This document shows positions 37,255-58,172 of a DNA stretch of 64,000 bases, piece after piece. The DNA is from Candidatus Latescibacterota bacterium (GTDB taxonomy: Bacteria > Latescibacterota > UBA2968 > UBA8231): contig CBDETY010000003.1 in NCBI GenBank assembly GCA_965243025.1, forward strand, positions 1,472,001 to 1,536,000. Reading direction: 5' to 3'. Within the stretch, counting starts at the first letter, position 1; every line of letters starts with the position of its first letter. The notes beneath the pieces were generated by a model. That model was not told where the DNA came from. It made no database searches and saw only the letters and a program-made list of their open reading frames with translations. The position numbers and the translations under genes are program-made.

Positions 37255-37284
37255 ATTATATGGAGGTCGTTTGGAGCCTGTCAA
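37255..37284 (-). promoter_or_regulatory. sigma70 promoter for ispG
   Basis: Minus strand TTGACA-N18-TATAAT. Confidence 0.75.
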
Positions 37285-37392: not shown

Positions 37393-38511
37393 TTGACTGA
37401 CCGGATCGACAAGGGCGGCCCCAGCCTGCCGCCCGCCGACATCGACGGCCTCCTCGAGGATTTCGGCGAGATCCTCCGCAGCGGCCGGCTCACACAAGGG
37501 GAGTTCCTCGACCGCTTCGAACGGGAGTTTTCCGAGTACGTGGGGGTCTCCCACGCCGTCGGCATGAGCTCCGGTACGGCACCCCTCGAGACCGCCATGC
37601 GGCATTTCGGCGTCGAGGGGGGCGAAGTGATCGTGCCGACCAACACCTTCGCCGCCACCCCCAACGCCGTGATTCTCGCCGGGGGAACCCCGGTATTCGC
37701 CGACCTCGACCCGTCGACGCTCTGCAGCGGCCGGGCCGAGATCGAAGGACTGCTGACCGCGCGCACCCGGGGCGTTATCGCCGTTCACGTAGCCGGGCTC
37801 GTCGTGCCGGGCATCGACGCCATGGCCGCGTGGTGCCGCGCCCACTCCCTCTTTCTGCTCGAGGACGCCGCCCATGCCCATGGCTCCCGGATCGGGGGCC
37901 GCTGCGCCGGCTCCCTTGCCGATGCGGCATCCTTCAGCTTCTATCCCTCCAAGGTGATGACCAGCGGGGAAGGGGGGATGCTGACGACGGACGATCCCGG
38001 GCTGGCGGCCTTCGCCCGCAGCTTCCGGTCCCACGGGCAGGCCGCCGACAGCCGCAGCATCGTGCGGCTCGGCAGCAACTACCGCCTTCCCGAGTTCAGC
38101 GCCGCCCTCGGCCTGAGCCAGCTGCGCCGGCTCGATGCAATCGTCGCCGGGCGCGCCCGCCTGGCGGATCGCTACCGGCACCGGCTCGGCCGCCGAAGCG
38201 ACATCCGGCTGATCGCCACCCCGGAAAACCAGGTTCACTCCCACTACAAGCTTCCCCTTGTCCTGCCCCCGGGAATGCAGCGGGACCGCATGGCGGCGTC
38301 GCTTTCGGCCCGGGGGATTGCCACGGGAAGCATCTACTGGCCCCCCTGTCACCTCGAGCCCTACTACCTCGGACGGGCCGGGGATTTCCCGGCGCGCTGT
38401 CCGCTGGCCGAGGATGTCCTTGGCAGGACCCTGACCCTGCCCCTGCACGGCGGCATGAGCCTCGAGGACGTGGACCGGGTCTGCGACTCGGTGGTGCGTG
38501 CGCTCGCTTGA
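37393..38511 (+). CDS. DegT/DnrJ/EryC1/StrS sugar aminotransferase
   Basis: SSGT..L, P..TFAAT, EDAAHAHG, FSFYPSK.MT.GEGG, GSNYRL.E, LTLPL. Confidence 0.95.
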   Translation: MTDRIDKGGPSLPPADIDGLLEDFGEILRSGRLTQGEFLDRFEREFSEYVGVSHAVGMSSGTAPLETAMRHFGVEGGEVIVPTNTFAATPNAVILAGGTPVFADLDPSTLCSGRAEIEGLLTARTRGVIAVHVAGLVVPGIDAMAAWCRAHSLFLLEDAAHAHGSRIGGRCAGSLADAASFSFYPSKVMTSGEGGMLTTDDPGLAAFARSFRSHGQAADSRSIVRLGSNYRLPEFSAALGLSQLRRLDAIVAGRARLADRYRHRLGRRSDIRLIATPENQVHSHYKLPLVLPPGMQRDRMAASLSARGIATGSIYWPPCHLEPYYLGRAGDFPARCPLAEDVLGRTLTLPLHGGMSLEDVDRVCDSVVRALA

Positions 38512-38512
38512 A

Positions 38513-38537
38513 TCCGGGGGAACCCGGGGTTTTTTTT
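38513..38537 (+). terminator. Intrinsic terminator after the DegT gene
   Basis: TCCGGG-GGAA-CCCGGG stem (one G-U pair) followed by T8. Confidence 0.65.
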
Positions 38538-38551
38538 GCGCGTTCCAATCA

Positions 38552-38571
38552 GTAAGTCATCGTTTACTTAC
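38552..38571. promoter_or_regulatory. Palindromic operator, likely for the adjacent TetR
   Basis: GTAAGT-N8-ACTTAC, 2 nt upstream of the TetR ATG. AT-rich in a GC-rich context. Confidence 0.65.
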
Positions 38572-38573
38572 CG

Positions 38574-39167
38574 ATGAGACCGAACCGAAGGAACGAAATC
38601 GTCGCCGCCGCCATCCGGGAGGCCTCCCGTCACGGCGTCAGCGGGTCCACTGTCCGCGCTATCGCCGCCGAGGCGGGAGTCACGGAGGGGGCGATATACA
38701 GGCACTTCTCCAGCAAGGAGGAGCTGTGCCAGGCCGCGTACTGCCAGATCGTCGCGGAAATGGCGGAGCAGAAACAGGCCATTGTGCGAAGCCCCGGACC
38801 GATACCGCACAAGTTCCGCTCCTGGATACAGGTGACCTACGAGTATTTCGACCGCTTTCCCGAGGCTTTCGCCTACGTCCTGCTCAAGGATCACGATTTT
38901 CCGCCGGAGATCCGGGAGGTCGCAGGGCGGCAGGGGCGGATGCTGACCGGCATGATCGAGGAGGCGGTCGCCGGGGGGGAGATCGATGAGATCGACCCCA
39001 TTCTGGCCGTCAGCCACTTCACCGGCATCATGCTCAACCTCCCCAGGTTGATCGGCGAATCTTCCATTTCGGGTCCGGCGGTGCGGTACCTCGACGACGT
39101 CGCCGGGGCGGTCTACCGCGTCTTCGGGATTCCCACCGGCAGGGAGGAAATGCATGCCGGAGAATAA
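38574..39167 (+). CDS. TetR/AcrR family transcriptional regulator
   Basis: G.SGSTVRAIAAEAGVTEGAIYRHFSSKEEL helix-turn-helix. Confidence 0.93.
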   Translation: MRPNRRNEIVAAAIREASRHGVSGSTVRAIAAEAGVTEGAIYRHFSSKEELCQAAYCQIVAEMAEQKQAIVRSPGPIPHKFRSWIQVTYEYFDRFPEAFAYVLLKDHDFPPEIREVAGRQGRMLTGMIEEAVAGGEIDEIDPILAVSHFTGIMLNLPRLIGESSISGPAVRYLDDVAGAVYRVFGIPTGREEMHAGE

Positions 39168-39792
39168 CAATCGCGTCCTGGTCCTCGCCCCGCACACCGA
39201 CGACGGCGAATTCGGTTGCGGTGGCACGATCACCCGCCTGATCGAGGAGGGGCGCAAGGTTTACTACGCGGCGTTTTCGACCGCCGAGGAGTCGGTGCCG
39301 GCGGAGTTCCCACCTGACGTTCTGGAGACCGAGGTGAGGGAAGGAACGCGCGCCCTCGGGATCGCCGGCGAAAACCTGCTGATCTACAAGTACCGCGTCC
39401 GCCACCTCCCGCACGTCCGCCAGGAAATCCTCGAAGAGCTGGTGCGCCTGCGGAGGGACCTCAGGCCTTCGACCGTTTTTCTCCCGAGCAGCCACGACCT
39501 GCACCAGGATCACCAGACCGTGTACATGGAGGGGCTGCGCGCCTTCAAGATGGAAACGGTTCTGGCCTACGAGCTTCCCTGGAACAACATCAGCTTCGAC
39601 TGCCGCCATTTCGTCGCCCTCCAGCGCCGCCACGTCGCCACCAAGGTCGAGGCCCTGAAGTGCTACCGGTCCCAGAATTCCCGCCCCTACAGCGAGGAGG
39701 ACTTCATCTGGAGCTGGGCGAGGAGCCGCGGGGTCCAGATCTCGGTCGACTACGCCGAGGCCTTCGACGTCTTGCGGTGGGTCATGCCATGA
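39154..39792 (+). CDS. PIG-L/LmbE family de-N-acetylase
   Basis: VLAPHTDDGEFGCGG, DLHQDH, YAEAF. Confidence 0.93.
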   Translation: MPENNNRVLVLAPHTDDGEFGCGGTITRLIEEGRKVYYAAFSTAEESVPAEFPPDVLETEVREGTRALGIAGENLLIYKYRVRHLPHVRQEILEELVRLRRDLRPSTVFLPSSHDLHQDHQTVYMEGLRAFKMETVLAYELPWNNISFDCRHFVALQRRHVATKVEALKCYRSQNSRPYSEEDFIWSWARSRGVQISVDYAEAFDVLRWVMP

Positions 39793-40526
39793 GCCCTGCA
39801 GGCAGCGGGGTTCGCAAGGGCGGAAACCGCGTTCTCACCGCCCACCAGCCGAACTACCTCCCATGGCTTGGCCTTTTTCACAGGGTTGCCCAGTCAGACG
39901 TCTGGGTGCTGGCCGACGACGTCCCGTTCAGCAAGCACGGGTACACGAACCGGGTTCGAGTGCGCACGGCCGCGGGCTGGCAGTGGCTGACGGTCCCGGT
40001 TCGGACCAGGGGGAGAAGAGGCCAGCAGATCAGGCAGGTGGAAACCTGCGGGGAAAACTGGCAGTCGAAACACTGGAGGACCCTGGAGTGGAACTACCGC
40101 GGCAGCTTTCATTTCGACGATTTCGCGCCGTTCCTCGCGAGCTTCTTCGAGGAGAGACGGTGGGACCTGCTGGTCGACGTCAACGTCGCGCTCTGCGATT
40201 TCCTGCGCCGCCAGCTCGGGATCGAGGTGGAGACGCGGTTGAGCTCGAGCCTGCAGCTGCGCCGTGAACGCAGCGAGCGGCTCGTCGACATGGCGCTCGC
40301 CTGCGGCTGCGACGTCTACCTCGCCGGGGGCGGGGGCTCGCGCCGCTACCTCGAGGAGTCCTGCTTTGCCGAGGCCGGGGTCGAGCTGCGGTTCGTCGAT
40401 TTCGAGCACCCGGAGTATCCCCAGTGCTTTCCGGGCTTCGAGGCCAACATGACCGCCCTCGACCTGCTGTTCAACTGCGGAGCGGAGTACGCGGGAAGGA
40501 TGATGGAGAGTGCCACGGGCTGCTAA
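39789..40526 (+). CDS. WbqC-like protein
   Basis: AHQPNYLPWLGLF, NR.R, WLTVPV, W..KHW.TL..NY, YL.G.G...YL, YPQ....F..N..ALDLLFN.G. ATGA overlap with the upstream gene. Confidence 0.92.
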   Translation: MSPAGSGVRKGGNRVLTAHQPNYLPWLGLFHRVAQSDVWVLADDVPFSKHGYTNRVRVRTAAGWQWLTVPVRTRGRRGQQIRQVETCGENWQSKHWRTLEWNYRGSFHFDDFAPFLASFFEERRWDLLVDVNVALCDFLRRQLGIEVETRLSSSLQLRRERSERLVDMALACGCDVYLAGGGGSRRYLEESCFAEAGVELRFVDFEHPEYPQCFPGFEANMTALDLLFNCGAEYAGRMMESATGC

Positions 40527-41685
40527 GGTCTGCCAGCTGACCAACGTGCACAGTCCGCTCGATCAGCGCATCTACTACAAGGAGGCCTTCAGCCTGGCCG
40601 CGGCCGGGTACGAGGTCTGCGTGGCGGGCCCGGGACCCGGCGACATGGAAGGAGTGCGCGGGGGAGTGCGGGTGGTGACCGTTCCGCGGGGCCGCGGGGT
40701 CTCCGGACGCCTCGTCAACGCACTAGCGCTGTTTCGCAAGGCCGCTTCGATGCGGGCCGACATCTACCACTTTCACGATCCCGAGCTGCTTCCGTTGGGG
40801 TTGCTGTTGCGCCTCACCGGGAGCAAGGTCATCTACGACTGCCACGAGCATTTTCCCCAGACGGTGTACGTTCGCCGCTGGGTCCCCGGAATGCTGCGCC
40901 CCGCATTTTCCGTCGCCCTCGACCGCATCGAACGCATCTTCGCAAGGCATCTCAGCGGTGTGCTCGGGGTAGTCGAAGAGCAGGGGAGCAGATTCGGCCA
41001 CCGTCCGTTCGCCGCGGTAAGGAACTTCCCGCGCCTCGAATGGTTCGAAGCCAACGGCCATCCCGATGGCAGCGGACAACAGGAAGAGTGCGAGCTTCTC
41101 CACCTCGGCTCGCTGTCGCCCGACCGCGGCAGCGAATTTCTCGTCGATGTCATGCAGGAGCTGGGAAAGACGCATCCCGGGGTCCGGCTGCGCGCCGTCG
41201 GCCGTTTCCACACCGGCCAGGACGAGGCGAACTTCCGGCGCCGCCTCGAAACCTGCGGCCTGAAGGACCGCATACTCTGCAGGCAGGAGCTGGTACCCTA
41301 CAACCGTCTGGGACAGGTGATCCGGCGCCACAGGATCGGGCTGATTCCCGGCCAGATTTCCGTGAAGAACCTCGCTCCCTTCGTCCCCACCAAGCTGTTC
41401 GAGTACCTTGCCTGTGGAATTCCGGTGGTCGCCAGCGACCTGCCCTCGATCAGGGCCTTCTACGAGGAGGGGGACTGGGGGGCGATCGCCGACCCGTCCG
41501 ATCCTGCCGCTCACGCGCGGGAGATCTCGCGACTGCTCGAGGACCCGGCCGCCGCGGCGATCAAGGGGAAAAGGGGCCGGGTTCTGGTCGAGGAGCGCTA
41601 CAACTGGGGGCTCGAGTCCCGCAAGCTGATCGCCTTCTACGACCGCATCCGCAATGACGGCATTGATTTTGGGAAGGAGGAATGA
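40510..41685 (+). CDS. Glycosyltransferase family 4
   Basis: H...D.RI, YHFHDPEL, IYDCHE, PTKLFEYLACGIPVVASD, YNW. Confidence 0.92.
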   Translation: MPRAAKVCQLTNVHSPLDQRIYYKEAFSLAAAGYEVCVAGPGPGDMEGVRGGVRVVTVPRGRGVSGRLVNALALFRKAASMRADIYHFHDPELLPLGLLLRLTGSKVIYDCHEHFPQTVYVRRWVPGMLRPAFSVALDRIERIFARHLSGVLGVVEEQGSRFGHRPFAAVRNFPRLEWFEANGHPDGSGQQEECELLHLGSLSPDRGSEFLVDVMQELGKTHPGVRLRAVGRFHTGQDEANFRRRLETCGLKDRILCRQELVPYNRLGQVIRRHRIGLIPGQISVKNLAPFVPTKLFEYLACGIPVVASDLPSIRAFYEEGDWGAIADPSDPAAHAREISRLLEDPAAAAIKGKRGRVLVEERYNWGLESRKLIAFYDRIRNDGIDFGKEE

Positions 41686-42548
41686 TTCGTGCGATGAAGA
41701 AGCCTTCCATTCGCGATTTCGGAGGTTTGCCCGCGGCGCTGGCCTGCCTGGCGCTGACCGTTGCCGCGCCGCCGCTGTTCGCCGGCGCCTGGAGCCAGGA
41801 AAAGGGAAGCCTCTACCTCAAGTTTTCCGGGATATCCTACTCGTCCGACGAGGTCTACAACGACATGGGGAACCGCCAGCCCATGGGGGAGGAGAGCGAC
41901 TCCTTCGCCGGCTCGCAGGGATTCCTCTACGCCGAATACGGGCTTGGGGGCCGCCTGACCGCAATCGCCCAGGCGAACGCCGGGGTCCTCGTGTCGGAGA
42001 ACCGGCTCGTTCACCGGCAGACGACGGGAATCGGCGACGTCGACATCGGCGCCAGATACCAGCTGACGGAGGGCCCGGTCGTCCTTTCTCCGCTGCTGAC
42101 TTTCAAGCTGCCCACGGGGTACAACGCCGACTACGATCCCCCGTTCGGCACCGGGAAGATCGACGCCGAGGTGCGCATCCTCGCCGCCCGCTCGCTGTAT
42201 CCGCTGCCGCTCTACGTCGGACTGGAGGGGGGATACCGCATTCGCGGGGGAGAGTACTCCAACCAGGTACCCTGGTTTGCCGAGGTCGGGGCAACCCCGC
42301 ATCCCAGGGTGTTCGTCAAGGCGTACATCGATGGCAAGGACACACGGGTGAGCGGGGACACCGAAGATCTCGGAGTGGTCGGGGCATCGGTCCAGGTGTC
42401 GGAAGGGGATTTCACCAAGGCAGGCCTCAACGCCGCCTGGAACGTCCGGGGCCCCTTCTGGGTCGACGTTCTGGCGGAACGCACGGTCGCCGGCGAGAAC
42501 ATCGGCGCCGGGGCTTCCCTCGGCATCGGCGTTTCATGCAGCTACTGA
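41682..42548 (+). CDS. Putative outer-membrane beta-barrel protein
   Basis: Signal peptide ending LFA-GAW; YAEYGL, GIGDVDIGARY, KLPTGY, FGTG; alternating strands and terminal Tyr. Confidence 0.7.
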   Translation: MIRAMKKPSIRDFGGLPAALACLALTVAAPPLFAGAWSQEKGSLYLKFSGISYSSDEVYNDMGNRQPMGEESDSFAGSQGFLYAEYGLGGRLTAIAQANAGVLVSENRLVHRQTTGIGDVDIGARYQLTEGPVVLSPLLTFKLPTGYNADYDPPFGTGKIDAEVRILAARSLYPLPLYVGLEGGYRIRGGEYSNQVPWFAEVGATPHPRVFVKAYIDGKDTRVSGDTEDLGVVGASVQVSEGDFTKAGLNAAWNVRGPFWVDVLAERTVAGENIGAGASLGIGVSCSY

Positions 42549-42573
42549 CTCAAACCCGGGAGAGGGAATTGAA

Positions 42574-43713
42574 ATGAACAGGCAACAGAGCCGGCGCCGT
42601 TTCCTGATGTCGAGCGGAGCCGTCGCCATTTCGGCGCTGGTCCCGCAGTGGGGGTGCGACAGCAACAAGGTGACCTTCCGGGAGATGCCCACGGCTCCGC
42701 CCATGGACATGCCGCCGGAAACCCCGATGGAGGAGATGCCGGAAGCCCGGATCACTCCGAACAGCCGTTTCTACCTGCAGTCGATCAAAGGCAAGAACTA
42801 CGATCCCGGGATCGACGCGGCCAACTGGAGCCTGCGGGTCGACGGCCTCGTCGACAACCCGATCGAGTCGCTGGCGTACGAGGCCATCACCGGCATGCCG
42901 ATGGCCCGCCAGACCATGACGATGCAGTGCATCGGCAACTGGATCGGCGGGCCCCTGGTGGGGAACGCCGAATGGGGAGGAACCCCGTTCCGCAACCTGC
43001 TCGACATGGCGGGAATCGGGGAGGGCGCCATCCGCGCGAAATTCTACAGCGTCGACGGGTACACCACCTCCATCCCGCTGGAGCGTGCGCTGCGGGAGGA
43101 GTGTCTGCTGGTATGGGAGATGAACGGCGAGGTGCTGCCCTCGAAGCACGGCTTCCCGGTGCGCCTGATAAACCCGGGTCACTACGGGCAGAAGATGCCG
43201 AAGTGGATCACGCGCATCGAGCTGATCGACGAAGTCTACCTGGGCTACTGGGAGAGCAAGCCGGAGAAAAAGCCGTTCAAATGGTCGGACGACGCCATCG
43301 CGACCGTCAACTCGCGGATCGATTCCCCGCTCTCCCTGTGGGACGACGTCAAGGATCCCGACAACGGGGGCGTTACCGTGCAACTGCAGACCATCCGCGG
43401 CGACGCCGACACGGTGTTCTCCGTACACGGAATCGCCATGGCGGGAGAGCGCAAGGTCGACATCGTCGAGGTGAGCACGGACGGCGGAGCTTCCTGGGAA
43501 GAGGCGCATATACTCAACCACCCGCGTGAAAACGTCTGGGTTGCCTGGCGCTACGAGTGGCCGCTGCCCCCTTCGGGCCGCTACGAGATAGTGGCCCGGG
43601 CAACCGACAACGCCGGGGACGCGCAGCCGGCCGAGGACAAGGGGGAAGATCTCTACGACGGCCGCACCGGCTGGCACCGGGTGCCGGTCAACGTGGTGCG
43701 CAGCGAGGCCTAG
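42574..43713 (+). CDS. Sulfite oxidase-family molybdoenzyme, Tat-exported lipoprotein
   Basis: Tat SRRRFL plus lipobox WGC; MQCIGN (Mo-Cys), GNAEW.G, MNGE.LP..HGFPVRL..PG.YG.K..KW; C-terminal dimerization domain VEVSTDGG.SW. Confidence 0.92.
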   Translation: MNRQQSRRRFLMSSGAVAISALVPQWGCDSNKVTFREMPTAPPMDMPPETPMEEMPEARITPNSRFYLQSIKGKNYDPGIDAANWSLRVDGLVDNPIESLAYEAITGMPMARQTMTMQCIGNWIGGPLVGNAEWGGTPFRNLLDMAGIGEGAIRAKFYSVDGYTTSIPLERALREECLLVWEMNGEVLPSKHGFPVRLINPGHYGQKMPKWITRIELIDEVYLGYWESKPEKKPFKWSDDAIATVNSRIDSPLSLWDDVKDPDNGGVTVQLQTIRGDADTVFSVHGIAMAGERKVDIVEVSTDGGASWEEAHILNHPRENVWVAWRYEWPLPPSGRYEIVARATDNAGDAQPAEDKGEDLYDGRTGWHRVPVNVVRSEA

Positions 43714-43716
43714 GGC

Positions 43717-44004
43717 CTAATCCTCCGGGAACCAGTTCCCGATTTTTTCGCGGATCGCCAGGGCCTGCCGGGGGCTCGAGATCTCGAATTTGCTGCGTGG
43801 AAGGTAGGATCCGTCGCGCTTCTGGTAGCGCCTGATCGACACCTTGTGGGGGCCGTACTCGCCGGATTTGCGGTCGAGATCCTGGTAGAGGAACATGATC
43901 GTCGTCCAGGATCCCTTGCTCAGCACCTCCTTGTCGAGCTGCTTGCGCAGAACCTTCCCGTCTTCTTCGTACTGAATCGTCAGTTCATCTACTGTTTCAG
44001 CCAT
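43717..44004 (-). CDS. Conserved-looking hypothetical protein (95 aa)
   Basis: Balanced composition, unlike shadow ORFs (LSKGSWTTIMFLYQD, IRRYQK..G.Y...SKF). Function unknown. Confidence 0.7.
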   Translation of the reverse strand: MAETVDELTIQYEEDGKVLRKQLDKEVLSKGSWTTIMFLYQDLDRKSGEYGPHKVSIRRYQKRDGSYLPRSKFEISSPRQALAIREKIGNWFPED

Positions 44005-57887: not shown

Positions 57888-58172
57888 AGAAAAAATCCCC
57901 GGATCCTTTCGGAGATGGACATTTTCCAATAATGAGAATAAAATCGCCTTCTCCAATATGTGTAGTATATGATAACTTACTGATTAGAAACAGGTTATTC
58001 GGTTATTTCCAAATTCAGGAAAATAAGCAGTGAAATTTCCCGATATGAGAACAATGCGAGCTGAATCGAGTGTCGGATGGGAGTCCGGAGCCAGGGCTTT
58101 CGCGCCTTCGGGAAAGAAGGGGCAGGGGGTCGGGTCAGGCCCCCGGCGAACGCTGTCTTGGGGAGATGAGGC

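Follow-up and report, generated by a model that had tools for sequence, protein, structure and literature searches.

In Porphyromonas gingivalis and Tannerella forsythia, the Wbp/Vim pathway is described (PMC7468200) as yielding a seryl or glycyl linking sugar whose amino acid is set by VimA and whose deacetylation by VimE is proposed; deacetylation followed by aminoacylation of a surface sugar is the chemistry put forward there, with support from mutants and mass spectrometry. For another family, WbqC, the annotation given in an O-antigen cluster is that of a putative glycine transferase (Shewanella wbqC; PMC7253198), and N-acetylglycine is found in Escherichia coli O121 (PMC7685785); the WbqC literature that we examined held this putative annotation and no biochemistry. 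The reaction of BshC, of bacillithiol synthesis, was called unknown and not reconstituted in a 2018 review (PMC5790435). Here we describe a gene block within a window of 64,000 nucleotides (nt) of Candidatus Latescibacterota DNA (contig CBDETY010000003.1, positions 1,472,001 to 1,536,000), which encodes a DegT aminotransferase, a TetR regulator, a PIG-L deacetylase, WbqC, a GT4 glycosyltransferase, an outer-membrane β-barrel and a molybdenum-cofactor (Moco) enzyme. Titles and abstracts of the open literature (subscription papers and supplements lying outside this scope) contained nothing on this unit or on a link between WbqC and BshC. The reading that we prefer, with a slightly better than even chance of being right, is that four cytoplasmic enzymes supply an envelope glycan with an aminoacylated amino sugar, and that the barrel and Moco genes are likely co-transcribed with them and probably act outside the sugar chemistry.

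Results

The unit begins upstream of the six-gene run and is conserved in one family

An initial annotation of this DNA, made from its letters alone, had described six co-directional genes from tetR to the Moco gene. All six open reading frames are present without internal stops, and the reported overlaps of 14, 4, 17 and 4 nt and final gap of 25 nt were borne out. Comparison with relatives moved the boundary: the conserved unit starts one gene further upstream and has the order degT-(tetR)-(pigL)-wbqC-gt4-barrel-Moco, with optional members in parentheses. The features are:

37393..38511, plus strand: degT, DegT-family sugar aminotransferase (PF01041, E 7.5e-106), a member of the conserved unit outside the span first annotated
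38513..38537, plus strand: hairpin with T-run in the degT/tetR gap (stem 38513-38528, -10.7 kcal/mol), in this genome only
38551..38572, plus strand: predicted TetR autoregulatory operator, ending immediately 5′ of the tetR start codon
38574..39167, plus strand: tetR, TetR-family regulator (PF00440, TetR_N), optional unit member
39154..39792, plus strand: pigL, PIG-L/LmbE-family de-N-acetylase (PF02585)
39789..40526, plus strand: wbqC (PF08889, E 2.5e-65), predicted aminoacyl transferase whose Rossmann core is BshC-like
40510..41685, plus strand: gt4, GT4 glycosyltransferase by Pfam, of a subfamily also found in surface-glycan loci
41682..42548, plus strand: barrel, predicted outer-membrane β-barrel of COG4313/FapF fold, with an N-terminal hydrophobic signal-like segment
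42574..43713, plus strand: Moco gene, sulfite-oxidase-family molybdoenzyme (PF00174 and PF03404, Oxidored_molyb and Mo-co_dimer), predicted Tat-exported lipoprotein
43726..43751, plus strand: weak terminator-like hairpin at the unit end (stem 43726-43741, -6.8 kcal/mol)

Our survey covered 76 genomes of the family (G000 being the genome of the window, other G-numbers further family genomes, g-numbers genera and L-numbers loci) and took at least 49% identity as the criterion for a GT4 orthologue. Such orthologues were present in 41 genomes, and the loci of all 40 carriers other than G000 were examined. The run wbqC-gt4-barrel-Moco was contiguous in 35 of these, the remaining five stopping at a contig edge; with G000 included, it occurs in 36 genomes and eight genera of one Latescibacterota-like family. 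The degT gene adjoined the unit in 33 of the 35 contiguous loci, and the other two, from genus g3, carried an orthologue elsewhere. DegT and GT4 orthologues were found together in 39 of the 76 genomes, DegT only in one, GT4 only in two, and neither in 34. Unit copies of pigL (73-93% identical) were found in 31 of the 35 loci, and the four genomes of genus g18 had a unit lacking it, together with a 51-53% identical paralogue elsewhere that lies next to an epimerase gene in the annotated copy; a need for a deacetylase inside the unit is not supported. No PIG-L orthologue was found among 16 relatives searched from other families. An SDR epimerase/dehydratase gene preceded degT in five carriers (G012, G020, G021, G080 and G082), and was not found in G000.

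Internal junctions of the unit were retained in 34-38 of the 40 loci, as against 30 for ispG-degT at one flank and 28 and 24, respectively, for Moco-small gene and small gene-IOR at the other. The neighbourhood comparison that the initial annotation had called for gave a divided answer: wbqC-gt4-barrel-Moco was kept, including the predicted association of barrel and Moco genes with the sugar genes in most of the 40 loci, whereas tetR was mostly missing and pigL optional. The 6.8-Mb G000 genome holds a single WbqC and a single close PIG-L, together with three paralogues of the barrel, one of GT4 at full length and four other Moco matches, and the GC content of the unit (0.64-0.70) does not indicate recent transfer. 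Contigs from one metatranscriptome run of related strains span 38498-38813, 40273-41017, 41826-42364 and 43100-43490; contigs cannot prove a single transcript, and we draw nothing from them.

Apparent partial losses of the unit were seen at four loci: tetR and pigL remnants only (L117, G009), a truncated barrel with Moco (L116, G007), Moco alone beside ispG (L202, G088), and a barrel shortened by an inserted open reading frame, the Moco gene there being broken too (L204, G085). At the flanks, a 95-residue protein encoded at 43717-44004 on the minus strand had no Pfam match, is 71-98% identical across the family and is mostly divergent from the IOR gene, and a perfect (12/12) sigma-70 promoter match lies upstream of ispG at 37255-37284, minus strand.

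Near relatives of the sugar enzymes come mostly from surface-glycan loci

The best Protein Data Bank match of DegT was perosamine synthetase, with the pyridoxal-phosphate-motif lysine aligned, and DegT is nearer to this enzyme than to WbpE (205 vs 126 bits). The initial annotation had offered the upstream DegT as a supplier of the amino sugar, and it is indeed the likely amine source. Elsewhere in G000, at C3:191.4-193.7 kb (L210:7401-9727), a WbpA/WbpB-like pair encodes a nucleotide-sugar dehydrogenase and a UDP-GlcNAc 3-dehydrogenase-like protein (the 3-dehydrogenase model scoring below its cut-off), with no aminotransferase gene alongside; it is a possible source of the keto sugar for DegT. 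A WbpB-like orthologue was present in 30 of 40 DegT carriers vs 11 of 36 other genomes. The complementary occurrence of WbpB and the SDR gene is a lead only, with neither present in 6 of the 40 carriers and 28-32 candidates scored per genome.

In PIG-L, the motifs HTDD and HQDH align with HPDD and HPDH of 1UAN. Its closest outside relatives in one metagenome scan (four loci, 55-58% identity) were of surface-glycan type, with flippase-type, epimerase, acyltransferase and amidotransferase genes as neighbours, and the best match in a plasmid collection was a Parabacteroides bcp-recA-GNAT-deacetylase-PIG-L-GT locus, followed by a haloarchaeal Wbp-like locus. Likewise, the best outside match of GT4 came from Azospirillum, at a locus that also encodes a flippase, WbqC, DegT, Gfo and a sugar dehydrogenase. 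In a quick tree, the unit GT4s formed one clade within a subfamily that also holds this Azospirillum protein and the sole full-length GT4 paralogue of G000, itself encoded inside a Wza/Wzz/Wzy/Wzx locus. Several family members carry a second WbqC/PIG-L/DegT cassette within Wzc/Wzy capsule-type loci. That surface-glycan loci account for most of the nearest outside relatives of these enzymes speaks for a glycan and against both a small thiol and a product of detoxification; the initial annotation had envisaged a low-molecular-weight metabolite or xenobiotic detoxification.

The modelled WbqC resembles BshC in fold

The unit WbqC scored 220.8 bits against PF08889 (cut-off 21.3) and keeps the near-invariant columns of a 147-sequence alignment. 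A structure model built from these sequences reached a predicted local distance difference test (pLDDT) value of 96.9. Its best Foldseek match was BshC (4WBD; E 2e-3, TM 0.47; no match reached E 0.001), and re-alignment, confined to the top 1000 Foldseek chains, gave Z 14.7 with a root-mean-square deviation of 3.1 over 221 of 233 residues. Class I LysRS (Z 12.1) and then PPAT and TyrRS (Z about 10) followed, which agrees with the resemblance to BshC and class I synthetase folds anticipated in the initial annotation. HIGH is a motif of class I synthetases, and WbqC has HQPNYLPWLG at its position. Because this sequence stands in place of HIGH, we infer that the amino-acid donor would be pre-activated, such as an aminoacyl-tRNA, rather than formed by ATP-dependent adenylation. 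WbqC is a large family (10,748 representatives at E 0.001) in which the unit copies form a separate clade in a quick tree; the BshC-like fold is presumably general to the family and not peculiar to this locus.

WbqC shares its locus with a DegT-type gene in all four of the named-organism WbqC loci examined. Of 48 plasmid WbqC loci, three were examined: one for pseudaminic acid, which includes PIG-L, one of DegT/radical SAM type, and one from Streptomyces. On plasmid pSVL1 of Streptomyces vietnamensis (L221), WbqC and DegT lie next to radical SAM/SPASM genes and a MurG-like transferase, a context which suggests that WbqC also serves small-molecule clusters.

An outer-membrane barrel and an exported molybdoenzyme

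The outer-membrane barrel of the initial annotation was upheld by a structure model (pLDDT 86.3) and had no Pfam match at E 0.01, PF13557 included. The top match of the model was 4RL8, the COG4313 protein Pput2725 (E 7.5e-11, TM 0.70), followed by FapF. Homologues fall in one Atlas cluster, of which 19% of members carry PF13557, and occur in Candidatus Latescibacterota at 88% and 65% identity. Three of 56 homologues are named XagA; xagA has been tied to an exopolysaccharide operon (PMC3609779).

In the molybdoenzyme, the twin arginine, the lipobox-like Cys28 and the Mo-ligand Cys119 are conserved without exception across the 10 orthologues aligned. Gln69 aligns with the active-site arginine of SorA, a catalytic residue there. 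The family domains are those of the MsrP/sulfite-oxidase-type enzyme proposed initially, but the protein fell short of the models of both SorA (136.9 bits, cut-off 600) and MsrP (53.8 bits, cut-off 207), and the window contains neither an MsrQ-like gene 3′ of the Moco gene nor a cytochrome gene alongside it. Close homologues are 58-90% identical, after which identity falls to about 40%. The enzyme is probably an S- or N-oxide-type oxidoreductase able to work alone. Moco orthologues were present in 45 of the 76 genomes: 39 together with GT4 and six without it, two further genomes having GT4 only. In G088, G086 and G007 the orthologue had no adjoining sugar genes, which was also true of second copies in G010 and G023; several of these genomes are fragmented.

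A barrel paralogue with an MsrP-like Moco gene after it occurs at C3:3748258-3750213 of G000 and at L107:9058-11517, and in G016 a TetR orthologue with its operator heads a paralogous barrel-Moco pair.

TetR and its operator accompany the unit in a minority of genomes

The tetR gene lies inside 6 of the 35 contiguous loci and in G000 (7 of 36), as well as in the split locus of G013, and its presence within units is restricted to genera g1, g9, g12 and g13. TetR orthologues occur in 17 of the 76 genomes, nine with GT4 (of 41 carriers) and eight without, so that TetR control as a defining feature, as first supposed, is not supported. The palindromic operator noted initially, GTAAGT-N8-ACTTAC, occurs once in the G000 genome; by itself the 6-bp inverted repeat is modest evidence, a repeat of this kind arising in 3.2% of shuffled versions of the 44-nt stretch. 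It proved to be part of a 22-nt site conserved 5′ of 17 of 18 tetR orthologues (score at least 20, with a matrix trained on these same sites), unit-less ones included, and this conservation ahead of tetR supports its prediction as a TetR autoregulatory operator. With a matrix trained without genus g1, the site was the best of the 6.78-Mb contig (35.7 vs 22.7 for the next). One site apiece was found in four of five genomes searched. The operator accompanies tetR wherever the gene is located and was not found at unit loci lacking tetR (best score ≤ 12.3). In G000, it probably also governs the genes downstream of tetR; no sigma-70 promoter was called 5′ of tetR. A role for TetR as family-wide master switch was rejected, 29 of 36 contiguous units having no tetR, and is retained for G000 only. 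The second-best matrix site (57960-57981, minus strand, about 200 nt 5′ of a groES-like gene) also fits the integration host factor consensus, which makes a link to TetR doubtful.

The intrinsic terminator said to precede tetR exists as a hairpin, but nothing comparable was found at 36 other degT junctions, those of both same-genus genomes included (best -3.6 kcal/mol), and terminator-like calls in the region do not exceed chance (eight vs a shuffle mean of 6.8). Because the hairpin is private to G000, the view that it marks the real beginning of the unit was rejected. For the closing hairpin, a comparable call was made in one of 38 other loci.

Discussion

In the pathway that we prefer, a keto nucleotide-sugar would come from the in-unit SDR in some genera or from enzymes encoded elsewhere. 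DegT would form an amine on the keto sugar and PIG-L would strip an N-acetyl group to expose a second free amine. WbqC would then take an amino acid (a small one, probably, such as glycine) from a donor that is already activated, for example aminoacyl-tRNA, and attach it, before GT4 transfers the sugar to a lipid-linked glycan for export by Wzx/Wzy machinery encoded elsewhere. In G000, TetR would likely repress its own promoter and hence the five genes 3′ of tetR. Several observations favour this envelope-sugar pathway: DegT tracks GT4, even in genus g3 with its degT at another site; WbqC loci pair with DegT, and a second cassette lies in Wzc/Wzy loci; and the PIG-L relatives and the GT4 paralogue sit in glycan loci. 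That Moco orthologues persist without adjoining sugar genes speaks for a Moco enzyme that probably acts outside the sugar chemistry.

Other results weigh against this interpretation. Genes for a flippase, a polymerase or an initiating transferase were not seen in the unit, the absence of the first two having been observed in the initial annotation; elsewhere, G000 has four Wzx-family genes, two Wzy_C genes and two for initiating sugar transferases. The survey counts are not independent, because 24 of the 41 GT4 carriers belong to a single genus. The profile comparison of WbqC with BshC (14 BshC sequences) was non-significant (E 0.037, probability 1.4%), and one of the four named WbqC-DegT loci, that of Streptomyces, resembles a small-molecule cluster. 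Finally, gt4-barrel is kept in 37 and barrel-Moco in 36 of the 40 loci, above the flanks, and in genera g6, g11 and g13 the whole block is intact at new chromosomal sites. This linkage suggests a shared function, which the envelope-sugar pathway does not explain.

The last point is the strength of a rather improbable alternative, one integrated pathway in which an aminoacyl-amino-sugar glycolipid or small amphipathic conjugate, made by the four enzymes, is moved through the outer membrane by the barrel and oxidised or reduced by the Moco lipoprotein. The barrel and Moco junctions are among the best kept in the unit and survive relocation, and Moco and GT4 orthologues mostly occur together. A role in carrying hydrophobic molecules is ascribed to COG4313 channels, uptake being proposed for Pput2725 (PMC4493636), and Pseudomonas GlcN-PG is made by a glycosyltransferase and a deacetylase (PMC12713373). 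However, we saw neither an inner-membrane transporter gene nor one for a flippase in the unit, the Moco gene is retained in places where the sugar genes are not, and barrel paralogues have other partners, such as an MsrP-like gene (G000, G016) or an amine oxidase (G010, G023). Moreover, the GlcN-PG synthase model gave 31 bits against a cut-off of 480.

It is unlikely, too, that the unit is a non-homologous counterpart of Wbp/Vim, with the barrel and Moco enzyme serving the same envelope process. PIG-L and WbqC would stand in for VimE and VimA to make an aminoacyl linking sugar, onto which large C25 peptidases would transfer secreted surface proteins in the manner of a sortase. Large C25 peptidases were found in all five carriers tested, including three in G000, and one was also present in the non-carrier G016. 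With the Parabacteroides proteins as queries, the polysaccharide deacetylase (carbohydrate esterase 4-type) and glycosyltransferase of that locus had no match in G000. A GNAT-like gene of G000 (C3:6749648-6750370), 24% identical to the Parabacteroides GNAT, might instead take the linking-sugar role in the manner of VimA.

Bacillithiol or mycothiol synthesis offers another parallel: GT4 would glycosylate a small acceptor, PIG-L deacetylate it and WbqC ligate cysteine, giving a low-molecular-weight thiol. BshC is the nearest solved structure to WbqC, and BshC itself (PF10079) was not found in G000 or 63 other family genomes by a search whose controls (B. subtilis, T. thermophilus and D. radiodurans) were positive; in five of five genomes GshB was not found and MshC never rose above its cut-off. 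Against this, every family score that could place the unit within the BshA/B/C or MshA/B logic invoked initially lies far below its cut-off: 20.2 vs 273.7 bits for BshA (TIGR03999), 63.7 vs 182.5 for BshB1, 31.4 vs 195.25 for BshB2 (PIG-L sharing only the superfamily) and 23.3 vs 462.5 for MshA. DegT, nearly constant in the unit, has no role in such a scheme, the g18 unit lacks PIG-L, and the BshC-like fold seems general to WbqC, a family of glycan loci. A thiol could also be reached through two GCS2-family genes, and the unit GT4 was not found in 35 of the 76 family genomes. The co-occurrence of DegT with GT4, the g18 unit without deacetylase and the glycan-locus relatives together make a thiol of the bacillithiol type very unlikely.

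Least probable of all is a TetR-inducible detoxification, in which a hydrophobic compound would enter through the barrel, be redox-modified by the Moco enzyme and be tagged with an amino sugar: the conserved operator 5′ of the five genes in G000 and the tetR-barrel-Moco triad of G016, with its paralogous barrel and Moco, speak for it, but TetR and operator are missing from most contiguous units, tetR remains beside ispG after unit loss (G083, G085, G047 and G009), and we saw no gene for an efflux pump in the unit.

The 233-residue WbqC, whose model matches the BshC core and whose likely amine-making and sugar-accepting partners adjoin it, offers a compact system for studying how this fold activates and transfers amino acids, and the block may signal that an uncultured family modifies its envelope in a way specific to the lineage. 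The persistent link of a channel with an exported molybdoenzyme, which the sugar chemistry leaves unexplained, is the part likeliest to conceal novelty.

Set beside the described systems, the unit shares with Wbp/Vim the predicted roles of aminotransferase (WbpE), deacetylase (VimE), amino-acid transferase (VimA) and glycosyltransferase (VimF), and G000 has WbpA- and WbpB-like genes elsewhere in addition to its three large C25 peptidases. It differs in that the deacetylase is PIG-L rather than carbohydrate esterase 4, the transferase is WbqC rather than GNAT/FemAB, and barrel and Moco genes are added. With the WbqC/DegT O-antigen and capsule clusters (Shewanella; PMC7253198), it has in common the WbqC family, the pairing with DegT and an often adjoining PIG-L; in contrast to these, it is a stable block outside a Wzx/Wzy cluster in eight genera, with barrel, Moco and sometimes TetR. 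The bacillithiol (4WBD; PMC5790435) and mycothiol pathways likewise combine a GT4 enzyme, a PIG-L-type deacetylase and an enzyme with the BshC Rossmann core, whereas here the family cut-offs are missed, WbqC has about 233 residues vs 540 in BshC, and DegT is added. Pput2725 (4RL8) and FapF (5O65/5O67) are the best fold matches of the barrel (TM 0.60-0.71), but are only 11-16% identical to it, and the barrel has no Pfam match. The Moco enzyme shares the Moco domain, Mo-ligand cysteine and twin-arginine motif with SorA (2BLF/2C9X) and MsrP/YedY, and the dimer domain with SorA, but has Gln at the SorA arginine position and a lipobox, and misses both cut-offs. Most likely, then, this is a lineage-conserved block in which known aminoacyl-sugar logic is carried out by a less-studied enzyme pair and is joined to an unexplained channel and redox pair.

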